A stretch of 64,000 nucleotides of DNA from an uncultured Candidatus Woesearchaeota archaeon (GCA_963717515.1 OY970338.1:1448621-1512620), one strand, 5' to 3'. Counted from the stretch's first letter, positions 1 through 8,858 are shown. Made by a program: numbers and translations. The notes: generated by a model not told the origin, from the letters alone.

Positions 1-164
1 ATTTGAGCTCGGCGCTTCTATCTCACTGTTTTTTGCTGTCAGGCATGCGATACAAATGCATCAGAAGGGATGAGACCAGTCTTTTCACATCATTGCACTT
101 CTCCTGTAATGTGCAGGAAAATTCACCACAAACAATATTAATAAGCTATGAATGCCTTTCTGGC

Positions 165-782
165 ATGGACAAGAAATATCTTCTATTAATAGGGGTTCTT
201 GCAGTCGTCCTGATTGCACTTGCGTGGAATTTCTTAAGGGTCGGGCCTGTTGCAGATGCAAATCCAAATGAGGTGAATAAGATGGCTGAGATTGTTGTAC
301 TTGAGACTAATATGGGAGATATCGAGATAGGGCTTGACAAGGGGCATGCGCCTGTGACTGTGGATAATTTCCTGCAGTATGTCGATGAGGGGTTCTATGA
401 CGGGACCATATTCCACAGGGTCATAAAGGGCTTCATGATACAGGGCGGCGGGTTCACGCCTGACGGGGTCCAGAAACAGACCCAGGCTCCGATAAAACTT
501 GAGTCAGGCAACGGCCTGAAGAATGTCATAGGCACGGTTGCCATGGCGAGGACGAGCGTGCCTGACAGCGCGACAAGCCAGTTCTTCATAAACACTGCTG
601 ATAACAGTTTCCTTGACAGGGCTTCGGGCAATGACGGATACGCAGTGTTCGGGAGGGTGATATCCGGGATGGATGTTGTCGAGAAGATTGAATCAGTCGG
701 GACAGGAGCAAAGGGGCAGAACAAGGACTGGCCGCTCAAGGATGTCATCATCAATAAAGCTTATGTCAAGAGTTCACAATGA
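165..782 (+). CDS. ppiA: Cyclophilin-type peptidyl-prolyl isomerase with N-terminal membrane anchor/signal
   Basis: Motifs FYDGTIFHRVIKGFMIQGGG, AMART, ATSQFFIN, YAVFGRV; likely ATG at 165 (MDKKYLLLIGVLAVVLIALAW). Confidence 0.95.
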   Translation: MDKKYLLLIGVLAVVLIALAWNFLRVGPVADANPNEVNKMAEIVVLETNMGDIEIGLDKGHAPVTVDNFLQYVDEGFYDGTIFHRVIKGFMIQGGGFTPDGVQKQTQAPIKLESGNGLKNVIGTVAMARTSVPDSATSQFFINTADNSFLDRASGNDGYAVFGRVISGMDVVEKIESVGTGAKGQNKDWPLKDVIINKAYVKSSQ

Positions 783-2117
783 TGCGACCTTAAGAAGAGC
801 CTCTCTTGTCTTCTCGATGTCTTTTGGAAAAGTGTCTGCATAGTATGATGCCAGCAACGCGGCGTCCGAATTCCCAATCTTGCCGTCGACAATGTATCCT
901 CTCTTCCTGGCATATGCAAGGATGCTGTCTGAGACTGACATTTTCGATTCTATCATGTCATAGACAGGCCTGATTATCCTGTAATAAGACCTGGGAGTCG
1001 CTGAGCGGGCGAACAAGTACAGCCTCTTAGCATAATTAAGCATCTCATCCTTTTCATAGCCATGGTATGCACTCCATAACTGGAGATTATTCCTGACATA
1101 CGTGTGCGGAGGGATATACATGACATTCCCCTCGACCTTGAATGCCTCATCAATGGCGAAATCCGCAGGGATGACCTCTAAGAAATCCCTCTGGATCTTC
1201 TTCAGGCAGTATTTCAGCATGACTGTTATTCCGACGACGACAGACATGTAGTTTATGTCCATGCCCCTCTGTTCAAGGGTGCCGTGCTTGTTTATCTTCA
1301 CAGGGTGCCATCCGATGTCGAGCTTGAACGGGTAGAGGACATTGAAATCCACTGACGGGTCGACTTTCTTGACTTCTCTTTCCCATCGTATCCATCTTCT
1401 GGAGAGGCTTATCAGGAGGTCGGTCGCTGTCTGCTTGTACGGAGGAAGCCCTCCTATTTGCTGGAGCGTTGCATAGACCCCTCCCATGTACCGGAGCTTC
1501 CTTCCTCCCCTGTAAATGAGGGTCCGGGAATCCTTTGCAAGGTACTGCCCTTCGAGTAAGGGGGATGACTGGGCATATAGGGTGAGGGCCGGGTCTGCTG
1601 CAATCTCGAAATTATAGGATGCCATCATGGACCTCTCGAGCTTGCTCTTCCTCATCAGCTTGAGGAGCTTCTCCCTCGCATCAAACACCCCTTTTGGCAG
1701 GCTGTAATGGTGATGGAATCCCGTCGCCCTTGCTGCATTTTCTATCTTCGGATAGCCGAATATCTTCTTCTTTATGTCGTATTGCAGGCCCTTAGTGAGC
1801 ATTGGCTGGAACTTTCCAGGATAAGTGGCAAATGGATAGAGCTTCAATCCGTTCTCCCTGCAGATATCGAGGCTCTTCTGTATTGAGTCGATCAGGTCGA
1901 TCGTCGGGTTGACAGCCGGGACATCGGGATAGCAGCCGAACTCAATCATGTTCATGCCGACCTCCTTGCTCACATCTACATTCTTATGGGTGTGCCTGAT
2001 GGCGGAAATCACTTTTGAGGAATCATTGGAGATATAGCCTTTGTCGTCGATGATATGGAACTCCGCCTCGATGCCTGTCTTTGATCTCTTGAGCGGCCTC
2101 TCTTTCTTTTTTACCAT
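774..2117 (-). CDS. Glutamate-cysteine ligase-like (GCS2) carboxylate-amine ligase
   Basis: N-terminal TGIEAEFHIID (GxExE), KE...MIE, GFHHHY (GxHxH), HGTLEQRGMD (TxExRxxD). Confidence 0.8.
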   Translation of the reverse strand: MVKKKERPLKRSKTGIEAEFHIIDDKGYISNDSSKVISAIRHTHKNVDVSKEVGMNMIEFGCYPDVPAVNPTIDLIDSIQKSLDICRENGLKLYPFATYPGKFQPMLTKGLQYDIKKKIFGYPKIENAARATGFHHHYSLPKGVFDAREKLLKLMRKSKLERSMMASYNFEIAADPALTLYAQSSPLLEGQYLAKDSRTLIYRGGRKLRYMGGVYATLQQIGGLPPYKQTATDLLISLSRRWIRWEREVKKVDPSVDFNVLYPFKLDIGWHPVKINKHGTLEQRGMDINYMSVVVGITVMLKYCLKKIQRDFLEVIPADFAIDEAFKVEGNVMYIPPHTYVRNNLQLWSAYHGYEKDEMLNYAKRLYLFARSATPRSYYRIIRPVYDMIESKMSVSDSILAYARKRGYIVDGKIGNSDAALLASYYADTFPKDIEKTREALLKVASL

Positions 2118-2231
2118 ACTCAATAAAGATTTGGGTATCCTTTATATAATTAATTATTTTAAATGTGTACGACCGATTTTGTCACGGAGTTTGCCGGATA
2201 ATTTAAATATCCCCGGTGGTTTTTGGGGCTG

Positions 2232-3560
2232 ATGGACAGGTCAGCGGAGGATGAATTGAGGAATTGCATCCTTGATGACAAAACCCTTGCGATGAAGTCA
2301 TTGGGCATAATAGGCAGGGGGTATTCTGATGCAGGCATGAAGGCAGGAGGCAGGATGCTGCCCTCATTCCTTTTTGCAAATTTCCTATCGGCAGATCAGT
2401 TTGAAAAAATCAGGCATTATGCTGAAGGGTTTGCAGGCATACTCAGCAGGATAGCTGATCATATCTGCAATGATTCAATGAATAATTTTATCGATATCGA
2501 CGTCCCGGAATACGGGCTGTTCAGCAGAGACTCTCATTGTGATGATGCAGACATGATAATCAGGCTTGACATGTTCTTTGACGGCAGAAGCCTGAAGCTT
2601 GTGGAATACAACTGCGAGAGCCCGTCCGGCATGGGAAGGATTGCACTCATAGAAAAGATATATCAGGGCATTCCACAGCTGGAAAGGTTCAGGAACAGGA
2701 TGCTTCATAAATTTGATACAATGGATATATTGCTGGATTTGACCCTTCAGGCCTACAGGAAGCATGGAGGCAGGAATAAGAGCCCTTTGATTGCGCTTGT
2801 GGACTGGAAAGATGTCGTGACTATCGCTGACCAGGAATACATCATAAGGTATTTCAATTCAATGGGACTTAGGGCAATCTGTTGTGAGCCTGGCGGCCTG
2901 AAGTATTCAGAAGGGAAGCTGTATCATGGACAAGACCGGATAGACATAGTCTTTCGGAGGGTGATTGCCAGGGAGCTCATGGAAAGGGAAAGCAGCTGCC
3001 GGGATTTCATACAGGCATTGAAGGAAGGCAGTGTCTGTGTCATCAACCCGAACATCTCCATTGTCCTCAATGACAAGAGGCTACTGGATCATCTGAGCAG
3101 GGGGAGTTTCGACATGCTGCTTGATGATGAGATGATTAAAATCATAAGGGACATAGTTCCCTGGACCAGGAAGGTTGCTGATAGGACAGTCACTGGCCCA
3201 GCAGGCAAAAAGATCAAGCTGGATGAGTATATCCTGGAAAACAGGGAGAGGCTGGTGCTCAAGCCTGGGATTGGGTATGGGGGCTCGCAGGTGGTACTGG
3301 GATGCGAAGCGGATGACAATGTCTGGGCAGATGCGCTGAATAGTGCGCTTGCCTTACAGGACTGGGTAGTGCAGGAGTATGTGGATATACCGGAAATCGA
3401 GGTCTTCGGCAAAGACGGGTTTGAGAAAAAATACATCAATCTAAGCCCGTTTGTCATCGGCAGGAGACTATCGGGCTTCTTCACTAGGGTATCTGATTCA
3501 AAGATAATCAACATCAGCAAAGGCGGCGGGCTCATACCTACTTATGTTCTGAAAAAGTGA
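2232..3560 (+). CDS. Circularly permuted ATP-grasp (glutathionylspermidine-synthase-like) ligase
   Basis: RLDMFF...KLVEYNCESPSG, IDIVFRR, NDKRLL, LVLKPGIGYGGSQVVLG, WVVQEYV, INISKGGG. Confidence 0.85.
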   Translation: MDRSAEDELRNCILDDKTLAMKSLGIIGRGYSDAGMKAGGRMLPSFLFANFLSADQFEKIRHYAEGFAGILSRIADHICNDSMNNFIDIDVPEYGLFSRDSHCDDADMIIRLDMFFDGRSLKLVEYNCESPSGMGRIALIEKIYQGIPQLERFRNRMLHKFDTMDILLDLTLQAYRKHGGRNKSPLIALVDWKDVVTIADQEYIIRYFNSMGLRAICCEPGGLKYSEGKLYHGQDRIDIVFRRVIARELMERESSCRDFIQALKEGSVCVINPNISIVLNDKRLLDHLSRGSFDMLLDDEMIKIIRDIVPWTRKVADRTVTGPAGKKIKLDEYILENRERLVLKPGIGYGGSQVVLGCEADDNVWADALNSALALQDWVVQEYVDIPEIEVFGKDGFEKKYINLSPFVIGRRLSGFFTRVSDSKIINISKGGGLIPTYVLKK

Positions 3561-3566
3561 GAATAT

Positions 3567-4724
3567 TCACTTCAGCATCTTTTCTGACGCCTTCGTCTTC
3601 TTGTCTGCGAACTCCGGCCAGTCCTTGAGATTCTCTTCCGGCGGATCGATATCGAAGATGTTGACAAGGTCAAGAGAGAGCTTCTCAAGCTTCTTATTCA
3701 CAGAAACTGTCCTGTCCCTGTTCATGTAGAGCTTCTTGTTGACCTCCATCGAGAATATGAACATGTCCGGGTATTTTGTGCTGAGCCATCTCAGGATATA
3801 TCCTCCACCGTACGGCGTGTTGAGCAGGACCGGGCTGTAGCCGAGGCCTATCATCTTCCTCTGCATGCTTGTGGCTATCGGGATATAGAAGTTCGGTATG
3901 TAGCGCGTGCCAATGCTTATGTTCGGCCTGCCAGGGAGGTCTTTCATGGAATGCCCGTCGAATATTATGTTGAACTTGTAGGTATTGACCAGGGTCGAGA
4001 GCATGAAATAGAATTCCCTGTAGGAGTTGAATATCTCCTTGTATTCTGACTTTGATGGGAGCTCTTTCCAGACATCCGAGTATTTTCCCCTGCGGATGTT
4101 GTAGTTGTCGTAGACAGCCCTCTCGATCCCCCTGTTGAAGTCAATCACGAACCTTGACTTCTTGTTGTCTATCCATATCCCTCCTTTCTCGAGCACGAGC
4201 TTGCTGTAGATCCTGTGCGTGTCCCTGTCCTCCTCGAGCCTCCTGTCTTTCTCTGTGACCAACTGCTTCTTCTTTATCTTCTCCGGCACCCAGGTCCCTG
4301 AATGTATTGTCAGCAGGAGGACATTGAATGAATTCTTCTTGTAGTTGTCATAGATTATCACTCCGTTCTTGGTTATGGTGAGGTTGATATCCTTATATTT
4401 CGGATGAAGATACTCGAGGTCCCGCTTCACAAGCTCATATAGCTCAATGCCATCGAAAAAATTCTTGAAATACAGCCTGTTCCTGTCCCTGTGGAACTCA
4501 TGGAGCGTACCTGTCAGGAGCTTTCCGAATATCTTGTAGCTCTTCAGGACAGAGATGAAATTCAGGTGCGGCTCTTCCTCTATCAGGTTCACCAGCCTGT
4601 TCATCAGCTTGAAGAGGAAGAACCTTTTTGATATGCCTATTGTTAGCGAGGAAGAAGTCGGCCTGATGAGCACAGGGCTGATGTTCTCGAGGAACTCCAT
4701 AATCTTTTCCATGGGCTTATCCAT
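3567..4724 (-). CDS. N-formylglutamate amidohydrolase-family Zn peptidase with N-terminal extension
   Basis: HSGT, EEDRDT, SRFVIDFNR, DGHSM, NTPYGGGYI, MEVNKKLYM. Confidence 0.85.
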   Translation of the reverse strand: MDKPMEKIMEFLENISPVLIRPTSSSLTIGISKRFFLFKLMNRLVNLIEEEPHLNFISVLKSYKIFGKLLTGTLHEFHRDRNRLYFKNFFDGIELYELVKRDLEYLHPKYKDINLTITKNGVIIYDNYKKNSFNVLLLTIHSGTWVPEKIKKKQLVTEKDRRLEEDRDTHRIYSKLVLEKGGIWIDNKKSRFVIDFNRGIERAVYDNYNIRRGKYSDVWKELPSKSEYKEIFNSYREFYFMLSTLVNTYKFNIIFDGHSMKDLPGRPNISIGTRYIPNFYIPIATSMQRKMIGLGYSPVLLNTPYGGGYILRWLSTKYPDMFIFSMEVNKKLYMNRDRTVSVNKKLEKLSLDLVNIFDIDPPEENLKDWPEFADKKTKASEKMLK

Positions 4725-4768
4725 TGCATATCGCTAAACAGAACACATTAATATATTTAACTATGGAA

Positions 4769-5428
4769 TCAGTCTTCAGAGACTGTAGCATCCCTTCCGA
4801 TGAAGACGCTTGAGATTCCATGCACAATCCTCAGGACAAACTCAAGCAGGATCACGAAGAGCAGGTAATAGACAAGATATTGGGCAAGGTCAGGAATCGC
4901 CACTGCTGCCTGGAGCGAGTTGGTGATCGAGAAATAGCTGACATCTATCAGGAACACGCCGAGAAGTGCGAAGGGTATCATCTTCGCAAGGTCCTGGGAG
5001 AGGTTCTCACTGTAGTAGGATGTTATCCTCACAGCTGCCACAATCGAGGCTGAGGTGAGAAGTATCGAGTCAGGGTTCAGGTTCTTCGAGAGCAGGAGAA
5101 GGAGCGCTGCAAGCACAAAGAACCAGAAGAACACGAGTATAGGGATCAGGATGAGGTTCTCAAGCACATAGAATAACCCTCTCCCGACATGGTTCATAAC
5201 GCCTTCATACGACTCGTAATATCTTGTCTTGAAATGGATTATGTCCCTCCTTGCCAGGAACTTGTAGAACTTGTACACAAAGATTGCGTATATTGTCATG
5301 CCGATGACAAAATACATGAGGGGCTTGACACCGTTCATGAAGTCTGTGAGGGAGAAATTCGAGATCGTGAAATGCGAGAGGGACTCTTTGGAGAAGGACA
5401 TGTTGAGGGCAGAGATGTTGATTGCCAT
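4769..5428 (-). CDS. Hypothetical multi-pass membrane protein
   Basis: About 5 hydrophobic segments; probable start MAINIS. Confidence 0.7.
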   Translation of the reverse strand: MAINISALNMSFSKESLSHFTISNFSLTDFMNGVKPLMYFVIGMTIYAIFVYKFYKFLARRDIIHFKTRYYESYEGVMNHVGRGLFYVLENLILIPILVFFWFFVLAALLLLLSKNLNPDSILLTSASIVAAVRITSYYSENLSQDLAKMIPFALLGVFLIDVSYFSITNSLQAAVAIPDLAQYLVYYLLFVILLEFVLRIVHGISSVFIGRDATVSED

Positions 5429-5516
5429 GGAATCCCTGTTGTTGATAGGATTTTTAAATGTTTCTTTTTTTTGGGTTTCACAAACATTTAAAAACAATAA
5501 TTTTTTCTCTCAGATA

Positions 5517-6077
5517 ATGGATGAATTCCAGTACGAGCTGAAGATGCCCAGGGACAGGGTGGCTGTTCTCATTGGCAAGAAAGGCGAGATAAAGAAGGAG
5601 CTTGAGAATAACACCCATACAAAGATAACAGTCGACTCAAAGGAAGGGGATGTATTTGTAAGGGGCAATGATGCCTTGAGCCTATATACTGCCAAAGAGA
5701 TAATCACGGCTATCGCGAGGGGCTTCAATCCTGACATAGCGCAGAGCCTGCTCAAGCAGGATTACTGTTTCGAGCTCATCAGGACTGACGACTTTGTCAA
5801 GAGCAAGAACAGCCAGCTGAGGCTCAAAGGCAGGGTCATCGGCAAGGAAGGCAGGTCAAGGAAGGCTATCGAGATGCTCACAGAAACATATATATGTGTC
5901 TACGGCAAGACCATTGGCATAATAGGGCTGACCGAGGATGTCGCAAACGCAAAGAGGGCCGTCGAGTCGCTTCTCTCAGGCAGCCCGCATTCGAATGTCT
6001 TCAGGTGGCTTGAGAAGGTCAGAAGAGACCAGAGAAGGTTCGATATAGAGGATAAAGATGGCGCAGGGAAAATCTAG
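5517..6077 (+). CDS. KH-domain ribosome biogenesis protein (Dim2/Pno1/Krr1 family)
   Basis: [43 protein letters not shown]; usual position upstream of top6B. Confidence 0.92.
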
Positions 6078-7767
6078 CATAAAGGCAGTGGAGCTTGCAA
6101 AAGGCCAGAGAGAGATAGGGGTAGCAGAGTTCTTCTCAAGGAACAGGCATCTGCTCGGGTTCGACAACAAGAAGAAGGCGCTCATGACAACCATCAAGGA
6201 GGCTGTCGACAACTCCCTTGACGCTTGTGAAGAAGGAGGGGTCCTTCCTGAGATACAGGTCGAGATAATAGACATGCAGAATGACAGGTTCAGGGTGATA
6301 GTCGAGGACAACGGCCCGGGCATAGTCAAGAAGCAGATCCCGAAGATATTTGCAAAGCTCCTCTACGGCTCAAAGTTCCACAGGCTAAAGATGAGCAGGG
6401 GGCAGCAGGGAATCGGCATATCAGCAAGCGTGATGTACGGCCAGCTGACGACAGGAAGGCCGGCAAAGATAATATCCAAGATAGACCCGACTGAGCCAGC
6501 GCATTATTACGAGCTGAAAATAAACACCCAGAAGAACACCCCTGAGATATTGAAGGAAGCCATGATGGACTGGCCTAAGGAGCACGGCACCAGGGTGGAG
6601 ATTGATATCGAGGCGACATATTCAGGCGGCCAGCAGTCGGTGGACCAGTACCTGAAGGAGACTGCAATCATAAACCCACATGTAACGATAATATACACCA
6701 ACCCGAAGGCCCAACAGATAATATTCCCCCGGGTGACAGAGATACTGCCCAAGGAGGCAAAGGAGATCAAGCCCCATCCATACGGAGTCGAGCTCGGCGT
6801 GCTCATGAACATGCTCAAGATGACTGAGTTCCGGACTCTCCAGGCATTCCTGACCAACGAGTTCTCGCGGGTAGGTGCAGGGACTGCAAAGCAGATCTGT
6901 GAGAATGCCGCGCTCCTTCCTAACAGCCAACCCAAACGCATATCAAGGGAGCAGGTTGAGAAGCTCATCGATGGAATAAAGAAGACGAAGATAATAGCTC
7001 CACCTACGGACAGCATAAGCCCGATTGGGGAATCGCTCATCGAGAAGGGGCTGAGAAAAGAGATAAACGCGGAATTCTACTGTGCCACTACAAGACCGCC
7101 GTCTGTGTACAGGGGAAACCCGTTCATCATCGAAGCCGGCCTCGCATACGGCGGTGCTCAGGAAAGAGAAGGACAGATAAACATAATGAGGTTCGCAAAC
7201 AGGGTGCCTCTCCTCTACCAACAGGGTGCATGCGTTGTGACAAAATCCATAACAGCGACGAACTGGAGGTCATACGGCCTTTCCCAGAGCTCAGGGGCAA
7301 TACCTCAGGGGCCTTGTACAATCCTGGTCCACATCGCGTCAGTGTGGGTGCCTTTCACGTCAGAGAGCAAGGAGGCAATCGCCCATTATCCTGAGATAAT
7401 CAAGGAGATTAAACTCGCTCTTCAGGAATGCGGACGGATGCTCGGAAGCTATGTAAACAAGAAGAAGAGGGTGCATGACGAGCTCAAGAAAAGAGGCTAT
7501 ATCGAGAAGTACATACCCCATGTCGCAGAGGCGCTCAGGGACATTCTCGGCCATGTCGACATGGCGACAATCGAGAAGAATCTCAGGGAGATGCTCGAGT
7601 CCAAGAGGGGCAGGATTGACGACCTGGAATTTGACCCTTCAAAAAATGTGGACTATGATGAGGAATTTGCGAAGATCGGCAGGGATGAAGAGTCTCATGA
7701 CGACATTGGTGATGATTCAGGAGATGATTCAGGGGAAGATCAGGGCGTTGAAGGTGATGAAGAATGA
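6058..7767 (+). CDS. top6B: DNA topoisomerase VI subunit B
   Basis: [61 protein letters not shown]. Confidence 0.98.
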
Positions 7768-8858
7768 GCGCGAAGAACACAAATACACTTGCAGGCATAA
7801 AGAACATCGCAGCTGGTGTCCTGAACAAGGTCATGAAGAAGAAGCATCCATCGCTTTCCATGCCTATCAGGTCCCTTCAGAATGTGAAATACGACCCCAA
7901 GGACGGTTATTTCGAGCTAGTGGGAAAGATGAAGGAGAGGACCCTTACGGCATCAACTGTCAAGACTTTTGCCCAGACCCTCAGGTTGATGAGCTTCTCA
8001 AAGGAGCTAATCGAGACAAACGACATCGCAACAAAGAGGGAGGCTTATTACATCAGCAAGAACTGGGGGGATGCAAGGTTCAAGGAGCAACCCGAGTCAG
8101 ACACTATTATGGATGATGTCGAGGCCATGATGATGGTCAATCGCGAGCAAATAGGCTTCATCCCAGAGGAGAAGGGAGGTGACATCGCAGGCAGGTTGAT
8201 TGTCGTCGACAAAGATCCAGAGACTGGAAAGGAGCTGAAGATAGACTGCACAAAGTTCGGCTCAGGGGCATACTCTATTCCCAGCTCTGTCGAGGAGCTC
8301 AAGTTCGAGACAAACGCGAAATTCATACTTGCGATAGAGACTGCAGGTATGTTCCAGAGGCTGGTCAAGCATAATTACTGGAAAAAGGCAAACTGCATCC
8401 TGATATCGATGGGAGGGGTGCCGACGAGGGCCTGCAGGAGGTTCATCAGGAGGCTTTCCGACGATAAGAAGCTGCCCGTCTATGCATTCACAGACGGCGA
8501 TTTCTACGGTTATTTCAACATATACAGGACATTGAAGGTCGGCTCGGGCAATGCTGCTCACATCAACCAGTATTTCTGCGTGCCGAATGCCAAGTTCATA
8601 GGCATAACTCCAGAGGATATAATTGAATACCAGCTTCCGACACATCCAATGAAGGATGTCGACATAAAGCGGGGCAGGGACGCGATGAAGAACGACCCGT
8701 TCGTCATCCACCATAAGCCCTGGCAGAATGCCATAAAGCAGCAGATAGCCCTGAAGAAGAGGGCAGAACAGCAGGCGCTTGCCAAGCACGGGCTGAATTT
8801 CGTGATATCAGATTACCTTCCGAAGAAGCTCGGCGACCAGAAGAAGTGGCTGCCCTGA
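7764..8858 (+). CDS. top6A: DNA topoisomerase VI subunit A
   Basis: [46 protein letters not shown]; ATGA overlap with top6B. Confidence 0.98.

Follow-up and report, generated by a model that had tools for sequence, protein, structure and literature searches.

Two ATP-dependent ligase genes and an amidohydrolase gene in a Woesearchaeota genome: a candidate module for the making and cleavage of a small gamma-glutamyl-type amide

Closest described systems

The metabolism of glutathione and glutathionylspermidine, in which a ligase of the glutamate-cysteine ligase (GCL) fold, an ATP-grasp ligase of the GSP_synth family and an amidase carry out two sequential ATP-dependent amide formations and one hydrolysis, offers a close parallel to three genes, A, B and C, located at positions 774-4724 of a 64,000-nucleotide stretch of DNA (the window) from an uncultured Candidatus Woesearchaeota archaeon (GCA_963717515.1 OY970338.1:1448621-1512620). 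These genes are interpreted here, with a probability of about one half, as a single cytoplasmic ligase, ligase and hydrolase module that would make and cleave a small gamma-glutamyl-type amide (pseudo-peptide) compound. The sequence-only reading of this locus had proposed a write-write-erase logic, directed either at a small gamma-glutamyl compound or at the tagging of proteins, and the former version is retained as the best interpretation.

The GSP_synth family includes glutathionylspermidine synthase. Unlike E. coli Gss, however, B has no fused N-terminal CHAP amidase domain, and the amidase of the locus is a separate protein with the fold of the N-formylglutamate amidohydrolases (FGase). 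Protein A, for its part, belongs to GCS2 but is very divergent, and does not reach the Pfam cut-off. It shares its fold and aligned catalytic motifs with E. coli YbdK and haloarchaeal GshA, but contains 447 amino acids (aa), with ~75 extra, mostly C-terminal helical residues in comparison with YbdK, to which it has 13-14% identity in structural alignment; it also differs from both in being characteristically paired with a hydrolase gene. The haloarchaeal GCS2-type GshA makes gamma-glutamylcysteine, the haloarchaeal thiol, according to PMC7278568, which also describes a test of the Haloferax gshA gene in a gshA mutant of E. coli. Protein B belongs to the same Pfam family as E. coli YgiC and YjfC and, like them, is a stand-alone protein with no amidase domain, a likeness at the family level only; these two proteins are cited as stand-alone peptide-spermidine ligases of the GSP_synth family in PMC12568646. 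Protein C, in turn, has the fold of HutG (2q7s, 2odf) and its conserved HSG, DxNR, DxH and E motifs, but falls below the TIGR02017 cut-off, lacks a histidine-utilisation context, and carries an additional N-terminal region.

Gene neighbourhoods that combine GCS2, ATP-grasp and FGase-type genes were reportedly predicted by Iyer, Abhiman, Burroughs and Aravind in 2009, and are said to include a bacterial cassette formed by a papain/C39-like peptidase, RLAN-RimK, GCS2 and FGase. The window likewise brings together GCS2, ATP-grasp and FGase-type enzymes, but its ATP-grasp is of the GSP_synth, circularly permuted type, A belongs to a divergent archaeal subfamily, no C39-like gene is found among the neighbours in the window, and the strands alternate rather than forming a fused operon. 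We regard the module as an uncharacterised variant of these predicted amidoligase-hydrolase neighbourhoods, which come from comparative genomics, and literature searches on the gene combination, its product and its function found no paper on this module.

Folds and conserved residues of the three proteins

Protein A is, as judged by profiles and a structural model, a GCS2-fold ligase despite missed family cut-offs. This assignment is made because of the match of its family profile to YbdK, the predicted fold, the clusters recovered from the ESM-Atlas, and the homologues that pass the family threshold. The family profile, built from 35 sequences with a mean column identity of 57%, matches YbdK (1r8g) at E 9.4e-5 in an alignment that includes the GxExE, E, H and GTxExR motifs, and residues E17, E19, E59, H135, E282 and R284, invariant in all 35 sequences, are putative metal/ATP-site ligands. 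The AlphaFold2 (AF2) model of A (predicted local distance difference test, pLDDT, 93.2; predicted template modelling score, pTM, 0.92) has YbdK 1r8g as its best Foldseek match (E 4.3e-11; template modelling score, TM, 0.61/0.75, with 0.75 on the target), followed by 1tt4 and the plant glutamate-cysteine ligase 2gwc (TM 0.65), and then by GshA/GshF and the glutamine synthetases. GCS2 clusters account for 28 of the 30 ESM-Atlas matches, and homologues of A at 33-43% identity clear the Pfam GCS2 cut-off (23-53 bits against 21).

Protein B matches the Pfam families GSP_synth (PF03738; 47.4 bits, cut-off 29.3) and CP_ATPgrasp_2 (PF14403; 35.4 bits, cut-off 32). Residues R111, D113, E125, N127, K282 and K344 are invariant in 36 sequences, with a spacing that we take to be that of R316/D318/E330/N332 of E. 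coli GspS. The likeness to glutathionylspermidine synthase is supported only by the Pfam GSP_synth match, and the alignment of residues 113-144 with the NCBIfam glutathionylspermidine (Gsp) synthase/amidase PRK10507 (E 0.023, 12.9 bits against 882) offers no support. Two more specific identities were rejected, that of a bifunctional Gsp synthetase/amidase, given the PRK10507 score, the length of 442 aa and the Pfam matches to synthetase families only, and that of GshB (PRK12458, 18.9 bits against a cut-off of 408). Single-sequence searches of the PDB recovered nothing useful for A or C, and a weak C-terminal match to 3n6x (E 0.0019) for B. In a quick maximum-likelihood tree (unrooted, with long branches), the five archaeal B genes that adjoin A-type genes form one clade (Shimodaira-Hasegawa-like approximate likelihood ratio test, SH-aLRT, 98), which contains both types of hydrolase partner, FGase and Amidohydro_2.

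Protein C matches Pfam FGase (PF05013) over residues 134-334, with 71.8 bits against a cut-off of 28.9, and its AF2 model (pLDDT 85.8, with 60-75 for residues 1-70 and mostly >90 for the remainder) is closest to the FGase structures 2odf (Z 21.7, model residues 90-362) and 2q7s (Z 21.6), with M14 carboxypeptidases at Z ~12. Seventeen archaeal and bacterial sequences share residues H141, E165, D166, R191, D195, N197, R198, H258 and E327 without exception, and the HSGT and DxNR motifs align to 2q7s; by analogy with carboxypeptidase A, these residues are presumably involved in zinc binding, carboxylate binding and general base catalysis. An identity as a HutG orthologue was rejected (TIGR02017, 24.3 bits against 278.75). 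The folds anticipated by the sequence-only reading were recovered for A and C, and the active-site residues are conserved in all three proteins; of the family profiles, GSP_synth, CP_ATPgrasp_2 and FGase were matched, while GCS2 was missed by A itself and its family was recovered by fold and profile.

The N-terminal extension of C is also present, although it is shorter than the ~130 aa estimated initially. The structural core starts at approximately residue 90 in the alignment with 2odf, even though the Pfam domain starts at 134, and the bacterial FGases linked to B (~286 aa) begin to align at approximately residue 92, which leaves an extension of ~90 residues. This extension is conserved in the archaeal clade linked to A, with invariant N55, F56, K61, Y63, K64, D80 and others, and the Pfam domain starts at residues 131-155 in seven of the eight A-linked FGases of the sampled genomes described below; the exception is a 270-aa FGase (L009) with its domain start at residue 56. 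A search of the ESM-Atlas with residues 1-133 gave no usable match, and the structural matches of C cover mainly residues 94-360, outside the first ~90. A prediction of the A+C complex, aimed at the docking of the extension on A, returned a score of 0.00, which is uninformative on binding. In two relatives, FGase-like matches contain one in-frame TAG each (G247:C28:18162-19223 and G077:C10:82938-83615), the G077 copy being short (270 aa) and devoid of the N-terminal extension, and these two genes may be decaying copies.

The tagging of proteins or peptides, in which A and/or B would add an amino acid or a small tag to a protein side chain or C-terminus, to be removed by C, has analogues in PafA/Dop, in RimK, and in the tubulin glutamylases with their M14-type deglutamylases. 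A shares a superfamily with PafA and Dop, C has an M14 carboxypeptidase-like fold, and the conserved extension of C could recognise a macromolecule. The Foldseek matches of A to PafA and Dop are weak, however (E ~7e-3, TM 0.40-0.42), and YbdK and GCL are matched far better (TM 0.61-0.76, E 1e-9 to 4e-11), which places A nearer to the small-molecule ligases. The characterised members of the B family also act on small molecules (PMC12568646), as does GspS. No small open reading frame (ORF) recurs in the 20 and 80 loci compared, lists that do not exclude a tag gene, and the hydrolase is swapped among four unrelated families, which would be easier with a simple, small substrate. The tagging version of the sequence-only reading is improbable on these grounds.

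Linkage of the genes and layout of the locus

The linkage of the three genes in relatives was assessed by searching for each of A, B and C in 300 other genomes of the phylum, evenly drawn. Strong matches to A (E<=1.2e-56) are found in 28 genomes, with weaker GCS2-like matches in nine more, and matches to C in ten. An A-family gene directly adjoins C in eight of these ten genomes, in three orientations (Table 1; G and L numbers denote genomes and loci, respectively). The 28 strong A loci were fetched and their neighbours scanned against Pfam, and in 17 of them an amidohydrolase gene, from one of four unrelated hydrolase families, lies no more than two genes away from A. No match to C is found in the nine genomes with a non-FGase partner (0/9), and no Amidohydro_2 in the host genome. 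Because the hydrolase partners interchange across these 17 loci, the conserved DPANN unit is the A ligase together with some amidohydrolase, B being a rarer addition. In an all-against-all clustering of the flanking ORFs, the only families that recur in at least three loci are the hydrolases, B, a beta-CASP RNase, a three-locus family of helix-turn-helix (HTH) type, and a small mechanosensitive (MS) channel-like protein. The sequence-only reading considered such a module unexpected in a reduced archaeon, which does not hold: with the A family in 28 of the 300 genomes, the module is not unusual for the phylum.

Table 1. Hydrolase genes found within two genes of A in the 28 genomes with strong A matches
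Partner of A	Loci	Genomes and arrangement
FGase	8	G222, G242, G195, G207 (C then A, one strand); G298, G148 (A then C, one strand); G113, G077 (convergent)
Amidohydro_2	5	G150, G074, G274, G012, G035
Class-II GATase-like (GATase_4)	3	G170, G081, G036 (convergent, overlapping)
M20 peptidase	1	G047 (overlapping)
No hydrolase seen	11	contig ends beside A in two

B-like genes are present in six of the 300 genomes, and the only close one (G150, 38% identity) lies directly after an A-family gene and is followed by Amidohydro_2. Three distant B-like genes (G271, G133 and G111) sit with distant GCS2, class-II GATase-like and C39-like DUF3335 genes, and the other two (G263 and G282) have no GCS2 within the stretch fetched. 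A scan of the B-family alignment against one genome per species gave 315 confirmed relatives, of which the best 80 were analysed. The A(-)B(+)C(-) layout of the window recurs in two of these loci, L022 and L040, with B 64% and 41% identical, respectively, and the order A, then B, then Amidohydro_2 is found in L010 and in an Aenigmatarchaeota contig (L052), in which an AstE/AspA-like gene is added after the module. The expectation that the genes would be linked in relatives is borne out by these two trios and by the adjacency of A and C.

The pairing of B with a hydrolase extends beyond DPANN. An FGase gene detected with a hidden Markov model (HMM) adjoins B in 31 of the 80 loci, 29 of them with the FGase directly downstream on the same strand and two (L022 and L040) convergent, while a 32nd FGase is cut off at a contig end; eight of the FGase genes are Pfam-confirmed. 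These loci belong to Bacteroidota, Bacillota/Syntrophomonadaceae, Desulfobacterota, KSB1, Neomarinimicrobiota, Thermoplasmatota and two archaeal contigs (approximately seven phyla). An Amidohydro_2 gene (~240 aa) takes the place of the FGase downstream of B in 15 of the 80 loci, mostly in Omnitrophota (three Pfam-confirmed), and a GCS2 gene lies next to B in six of the 80, including three acidobacterial loci in which a canonical GCS2 comes after B (two were scanned, with 218 and 213 bits). The A-hydrolase, B-hydrolase and A-B pairings recur independently, and both ligases share the two main hydrolase partners.

Chance proximity of three genes with no joint function might be suggested by the alternating strands, which imply more than one transcript, and by the absence of B from most A-C loci. 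The three pairings recur, however, in distant lineages and in varied arrangements, synteny counts that largely refute this explanation, and the exact trio layout is kept at 41-64% B identity, which leaves chance very improbable indeed. A separate suggestion, that B arrived recently from bacteria and was inserted between A and C, was rejected on the basis of this persistence of the trio layout, the archaeal clade of B, and its GC content, which is like that of its neighbours (A 0.49, B 0.48, C 0.48).

The partner families also include catabolic enzymes, such as FGase itself (histidine use) and the AstE/AspA-like gene by the L052 module, and transporter genes, for a TonB-dependent receptor (12 loci) or a sodium:solute symporter, adjoin some of the bacterial B-FGase loci. 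A nutritional module, in which imported N-acyl amino acids or gamma-glutamyl peptides would be split by C or its alternatives to release glutamate or some other amino acid, with the ligases re-using the pieces, would agree with these neighbours and with the general reliance of DPANN archaea on scavenged metabolites. Such a salvage role leaves unexplained, however, why two ATP-consuming ligases should be so closely linked to the hydrolase; the loci scanned around the archaeal module show no recurrent transporter, and C is not a HutG orthologue. Salvage is, overall, distinctly improbable.

Other arrangements of these families were also encountered. The acidobacterial B-GCS2 pairs (L094:796-3975, L097:2622-5436 and L098:7992-10463) are an independent bacterial instance of two linked ligases, without an FGase, and the B of L094 is unusually long (652 aa). 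A further "type-2" module, distant from the first, in the same phylum (L012:432-4559 in G133 and L013:5156-9338 in G111; also L011 and L114) contains a C39-like DUF3335 peptidase alongside a B-like ATP-grasp of the circularly permuted type, a GCS2 of ~400-450 aa and a class-II GATase-like hydrolase, with the logic of the bacterial peptidase, ATP-grasp, GCS2 and hydrolase cassettes and members of different families; the C39-like DUF3335 gene is found in L012, L013 and L114. The B-like genes of Omnitrophota (L053, L059, L065 and others; ~14 of the 80 loci) are part of a conserved block, with citrate synthase and succinyl-CoA ligase upstream of B and, downstream, DUF2203, Fpg, pyruvoyl arginine decarboxylase, a CN-hydrolase and agmatine deiminase, which correspond to a putrescine pathway.

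The positions of the genes in the window are given in Table 2. The three long ORFs are intact and alternate in strand in an ORF scan, at the positions given in the sequence-only reading. For A, the start at ATG 2117 gives the 447-aa form, to which a database protein is identical at 100%, and for B the start at ATG 2232 gives the 442-aa database form. The AT-rich divergent gap between A and B, which had been placed at ~110 bp, measures 114 bp from ATG to ATG, with 35% GC against 46.5% in the window, and B and C do converge, with 6 bp between their stop codons. Each TATA-like run in the A/B gap lies ~25-30 nt upstream of one of the start codons, and we infer that these runs and that upstream of C are putative promoters, given the typical geometry of archaeal promoters.

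Table 2. Features of the locus and of its flanks in the window
Feature	Position	Strand	Description
Cyclophilin-type gene	3-782	+	peptidyl-prolyl isomerase (169 bits); N-terminal part resembles a membrane anchor
Gene A	774..2117	-	predicted divergent GCS2/YbdK-fold ATP-dependent carboxylate-amine ligase, 447 aa; ORF to TTG at 2123
A/B divergent intergenic region	2118..2231	.	114 bp, 35% GC; TATA-like runs ~2141-2149 and ~2200-2209
Gene B	2232..3560	+	predicted glutathionylspermidine-synthase-like circularly permuted ATP-grasp acid-amine ligase, 442 aa; ORF from TTG at 2223
Gene C	3567..4724	-	predicted FGase-fold (carboxypeptidase-A-like) amidohydrolase, 385 aa, with ~90-aa lineage-specific N-terminal extension
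Region upstream of C	4725..4768	.	44 bp, 27% GC; TATA-like run ~4749-4760
Membrane protein gene	4769-5497	-	predicted membrane protein, 242 aa
Topoisomerase VI B and A genes	6058-8858	+	4-bp overlap; 1.3 kb from the module

The host genome is a single contig of 1.84 Mb, with an estimated completeness of 89.9%, and the closest homologues carry the source names Woesearchaeota or Nanoarchaeota. The cyclophilin-type gene is convergent with A, their 3' ends overlapping by 9 bp. The membrane protein gene lies directly upstream of C on the same strand and matched no Pfam or NCBIfam family; kinship with the MS-channel-like neighbours found in relatives was rejected, as it is unrelated to them in the flanking-ORF clustering. 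Further flanking genes encode a KH-domain protein, topoisomerase VI subunits B and A, and an M48 peptidase. A topoisomerase VI A gene is also found two genes upstream of the A-family ligase in the relative G247 (L112:3454-4542), a proximity that hints at an older, conserved synteny.

Possible chemistry and physiological role

By analogy with its characterised relatives, A would activate a carboxylate at the expense of ATP and join it to an amine or amino acid, the gamma-carboxyl of glutamate being the likeliest group to be activated. B would then form a second amide on a free carboxylate of the product of A, through the addition of a polyamine or a further amino acid, and C, as a zinc carboxypeptidase-fold N-acyl-amino-acid amidohydrolase, would cleave one of the bonds, for turnover, the control of levels, or recycling. 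In the simplest scheme, two ligations would be followed, or balanced, by one hydrolysis, in parallel with the synthesis of glutathione and glutathionylspermidine and the corresponding amidase. We infer the substrates, the order of the steps and the physiological role from these relatives, while the folds, the conserved catalytic residues and the pairwise linkage of the genes are observed.

In carboxypeptidase A-like enzymes, an Asn-Arg pair binds the free alpha-carboxylate beside the scissile amide, so that C, in which this pair is conserved, would be expected to cleave a bond of the N-acyl-amino-acid type. The M20, AstE/AspA-like and class-II GATase-like hydrolases include N-acyl-amino-acid or gamma-glutamyl amidases (DapE/ArgE, EgtC, Dug2/Dug3), and the alternative hydrolase partners may be seen to point the same way.

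Some of these partners also fit a different logic, in which a glutamyl or acyl group would be attached transiently to the intermediate of another pathway, as a protecting group or carrier, and removed by the hydrolase at the end. Schemes of this type are found in ergothioneine synthesis (EgtA/EgtC), putrescine use (PuuA/PuuD) and archaeal lysine synthesis (LysX/LysK), in which the N-terminal nucleophile (Ntn) hydrolase EgtC and the M20-type LysK remove glutamyl groups, and the partners of A include both a class-II GATase-like Ntn hydrolase (three loci) and an M20 peptidase (one locus). A carrier role would also account for an operon of ligase and hydrolase that would otherwise be a futile cycle. 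No enzyme for a middle step (oxidase, methyltransferase, aminotransferase or similar) recurs in the flanking-ORF clustering, however, and DPANN genomes are small, with few biosynthetic pathways, which makes the transient attachment of a protecting group possible, if unlikely.

A number of observations weigh against the interpretation of the three genes as one module for a gamma-glutamyl-type compound. The Pfam scan of A gave no match to PF04107 at E<=0.1, the sole match being a spurious one to LEF-8 (16.6 bits), and its match to NCBIfam YbdK/GCS2 (E 5e-4, 19.5 bits) lies below the cut-off of 176; a search of the whole host genome with the PF04107 profile also gave no match. No hydrolase is seen near A in 11 of the 28 loci of Table 1. 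In one of the two C-bearing genomes in which the genes do not adjoin (G247), C and the A-like gene are on different contigs, while in the other (G261), the matches to A and C are both weak. B is found near A in just one of the 28 genomes with strong A matches, and is missing from most A-C loci, which would mean that A and the hydrolase work without B, and that B may serve a side branch. The chemistry proposed for the module is drawn wholly from family analogy, and the bond cut by known FGase enzymes is an amide at the alpha-amine of glutamate, not a gamma-glutamyl one, so that the target bond of C is uncertain. Evidence for a role linked to thiols, polyamines or osmolytes is limited to weak hints, and redox-type neighbours are found in a few loci only. 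The co-occurrence of disulfide reductase with A was rejected as support for a thiol, given that this enzyme is found in 87 of the 300 genomes (14 of the 28 with A, against 73 of the 272 without), and that the genomes are related rather than independent. Glutaredoxin matches also arise in control genomes that lack glutathione.

Among the redox neighbours of A-family genes are MsrB, a thioredoxin-reductase-like gene, a GILT/DsbA-like protein and, in three genomes that belong to a single genus, a flavoprotein disulfide reductase whose gene converges on A; peroxiredoxins adjoin the module in L040 and L046, and a rhodanese-metallo-beta-lactamase fusion is found in L096. According to PMC7278568 ("Redox and Thiols in Archaea"), most archaeal matches to the GshA family come from haloarchaea and some from DPANN, a GshB is not apparent in archaea, and the low-molecular-weight thiols of most archaea have yet to be resolved. 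In the case of the polyamines, genes for a pyruvoyl arginine decarboxylase and for a homologue of spermidine synthase are present in the host genome, so that polyamines should be available, and the B-like genes of Omnitrophota lie beside arginine decarboxylase (14 loci), N-carbamoylputrescine-amidase-like and agmatine-deiminase genes, although a single phylum counts as one observation. Genes of MscS type or for small MS-channel-like proteins adjoin A in five loci, from three families. Four of these loci (L016, L017, L019 and L103) have small MS_channel_1st_1 proteins, and the fifth a full MscS (L108:3895-4950).

A broader proposal, with the odds well against it, is that many DPANN archaea make a small, undescribed gamma-glutamyl compound by means of the A-type ligase. 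This might be a thiol based on gamma-Glu-Cys, extended by B in some lineages to a polyamine conjugate (a glycine-less counterpart of trypanothione), or a compatible solute of the dipeptide type, released through the neighbouring MS-channel-like proteins. Its amount would be controlled by a dedicated amidase, with FGase, Amidohydro_2, GATase-like and M20 enzymes as interchangeable options. A second part of this proposal is that B with FGase or Amidohydro_2 would represent a widespread, unrecognised acid-amine ligase/amidase system of bacteria.

The pairing of a GSP_synth-type ligase with FGase or Amidohydro_2 is a conserved, unstudied gene pair in many bacterial phyla. As A, B and C are soluble and of ordinary size, the question of the product can be addressed directly in vitro. 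Biosynthetic enzymes are very few in DPANN archaea, yet this ATP-spending ligase is highly conserved and kept beside a dedicated hydrolase, which suggests that the metabolite would be important to these organisms, with redox buffering, osmotic balance and exchange with a host as possible roles.

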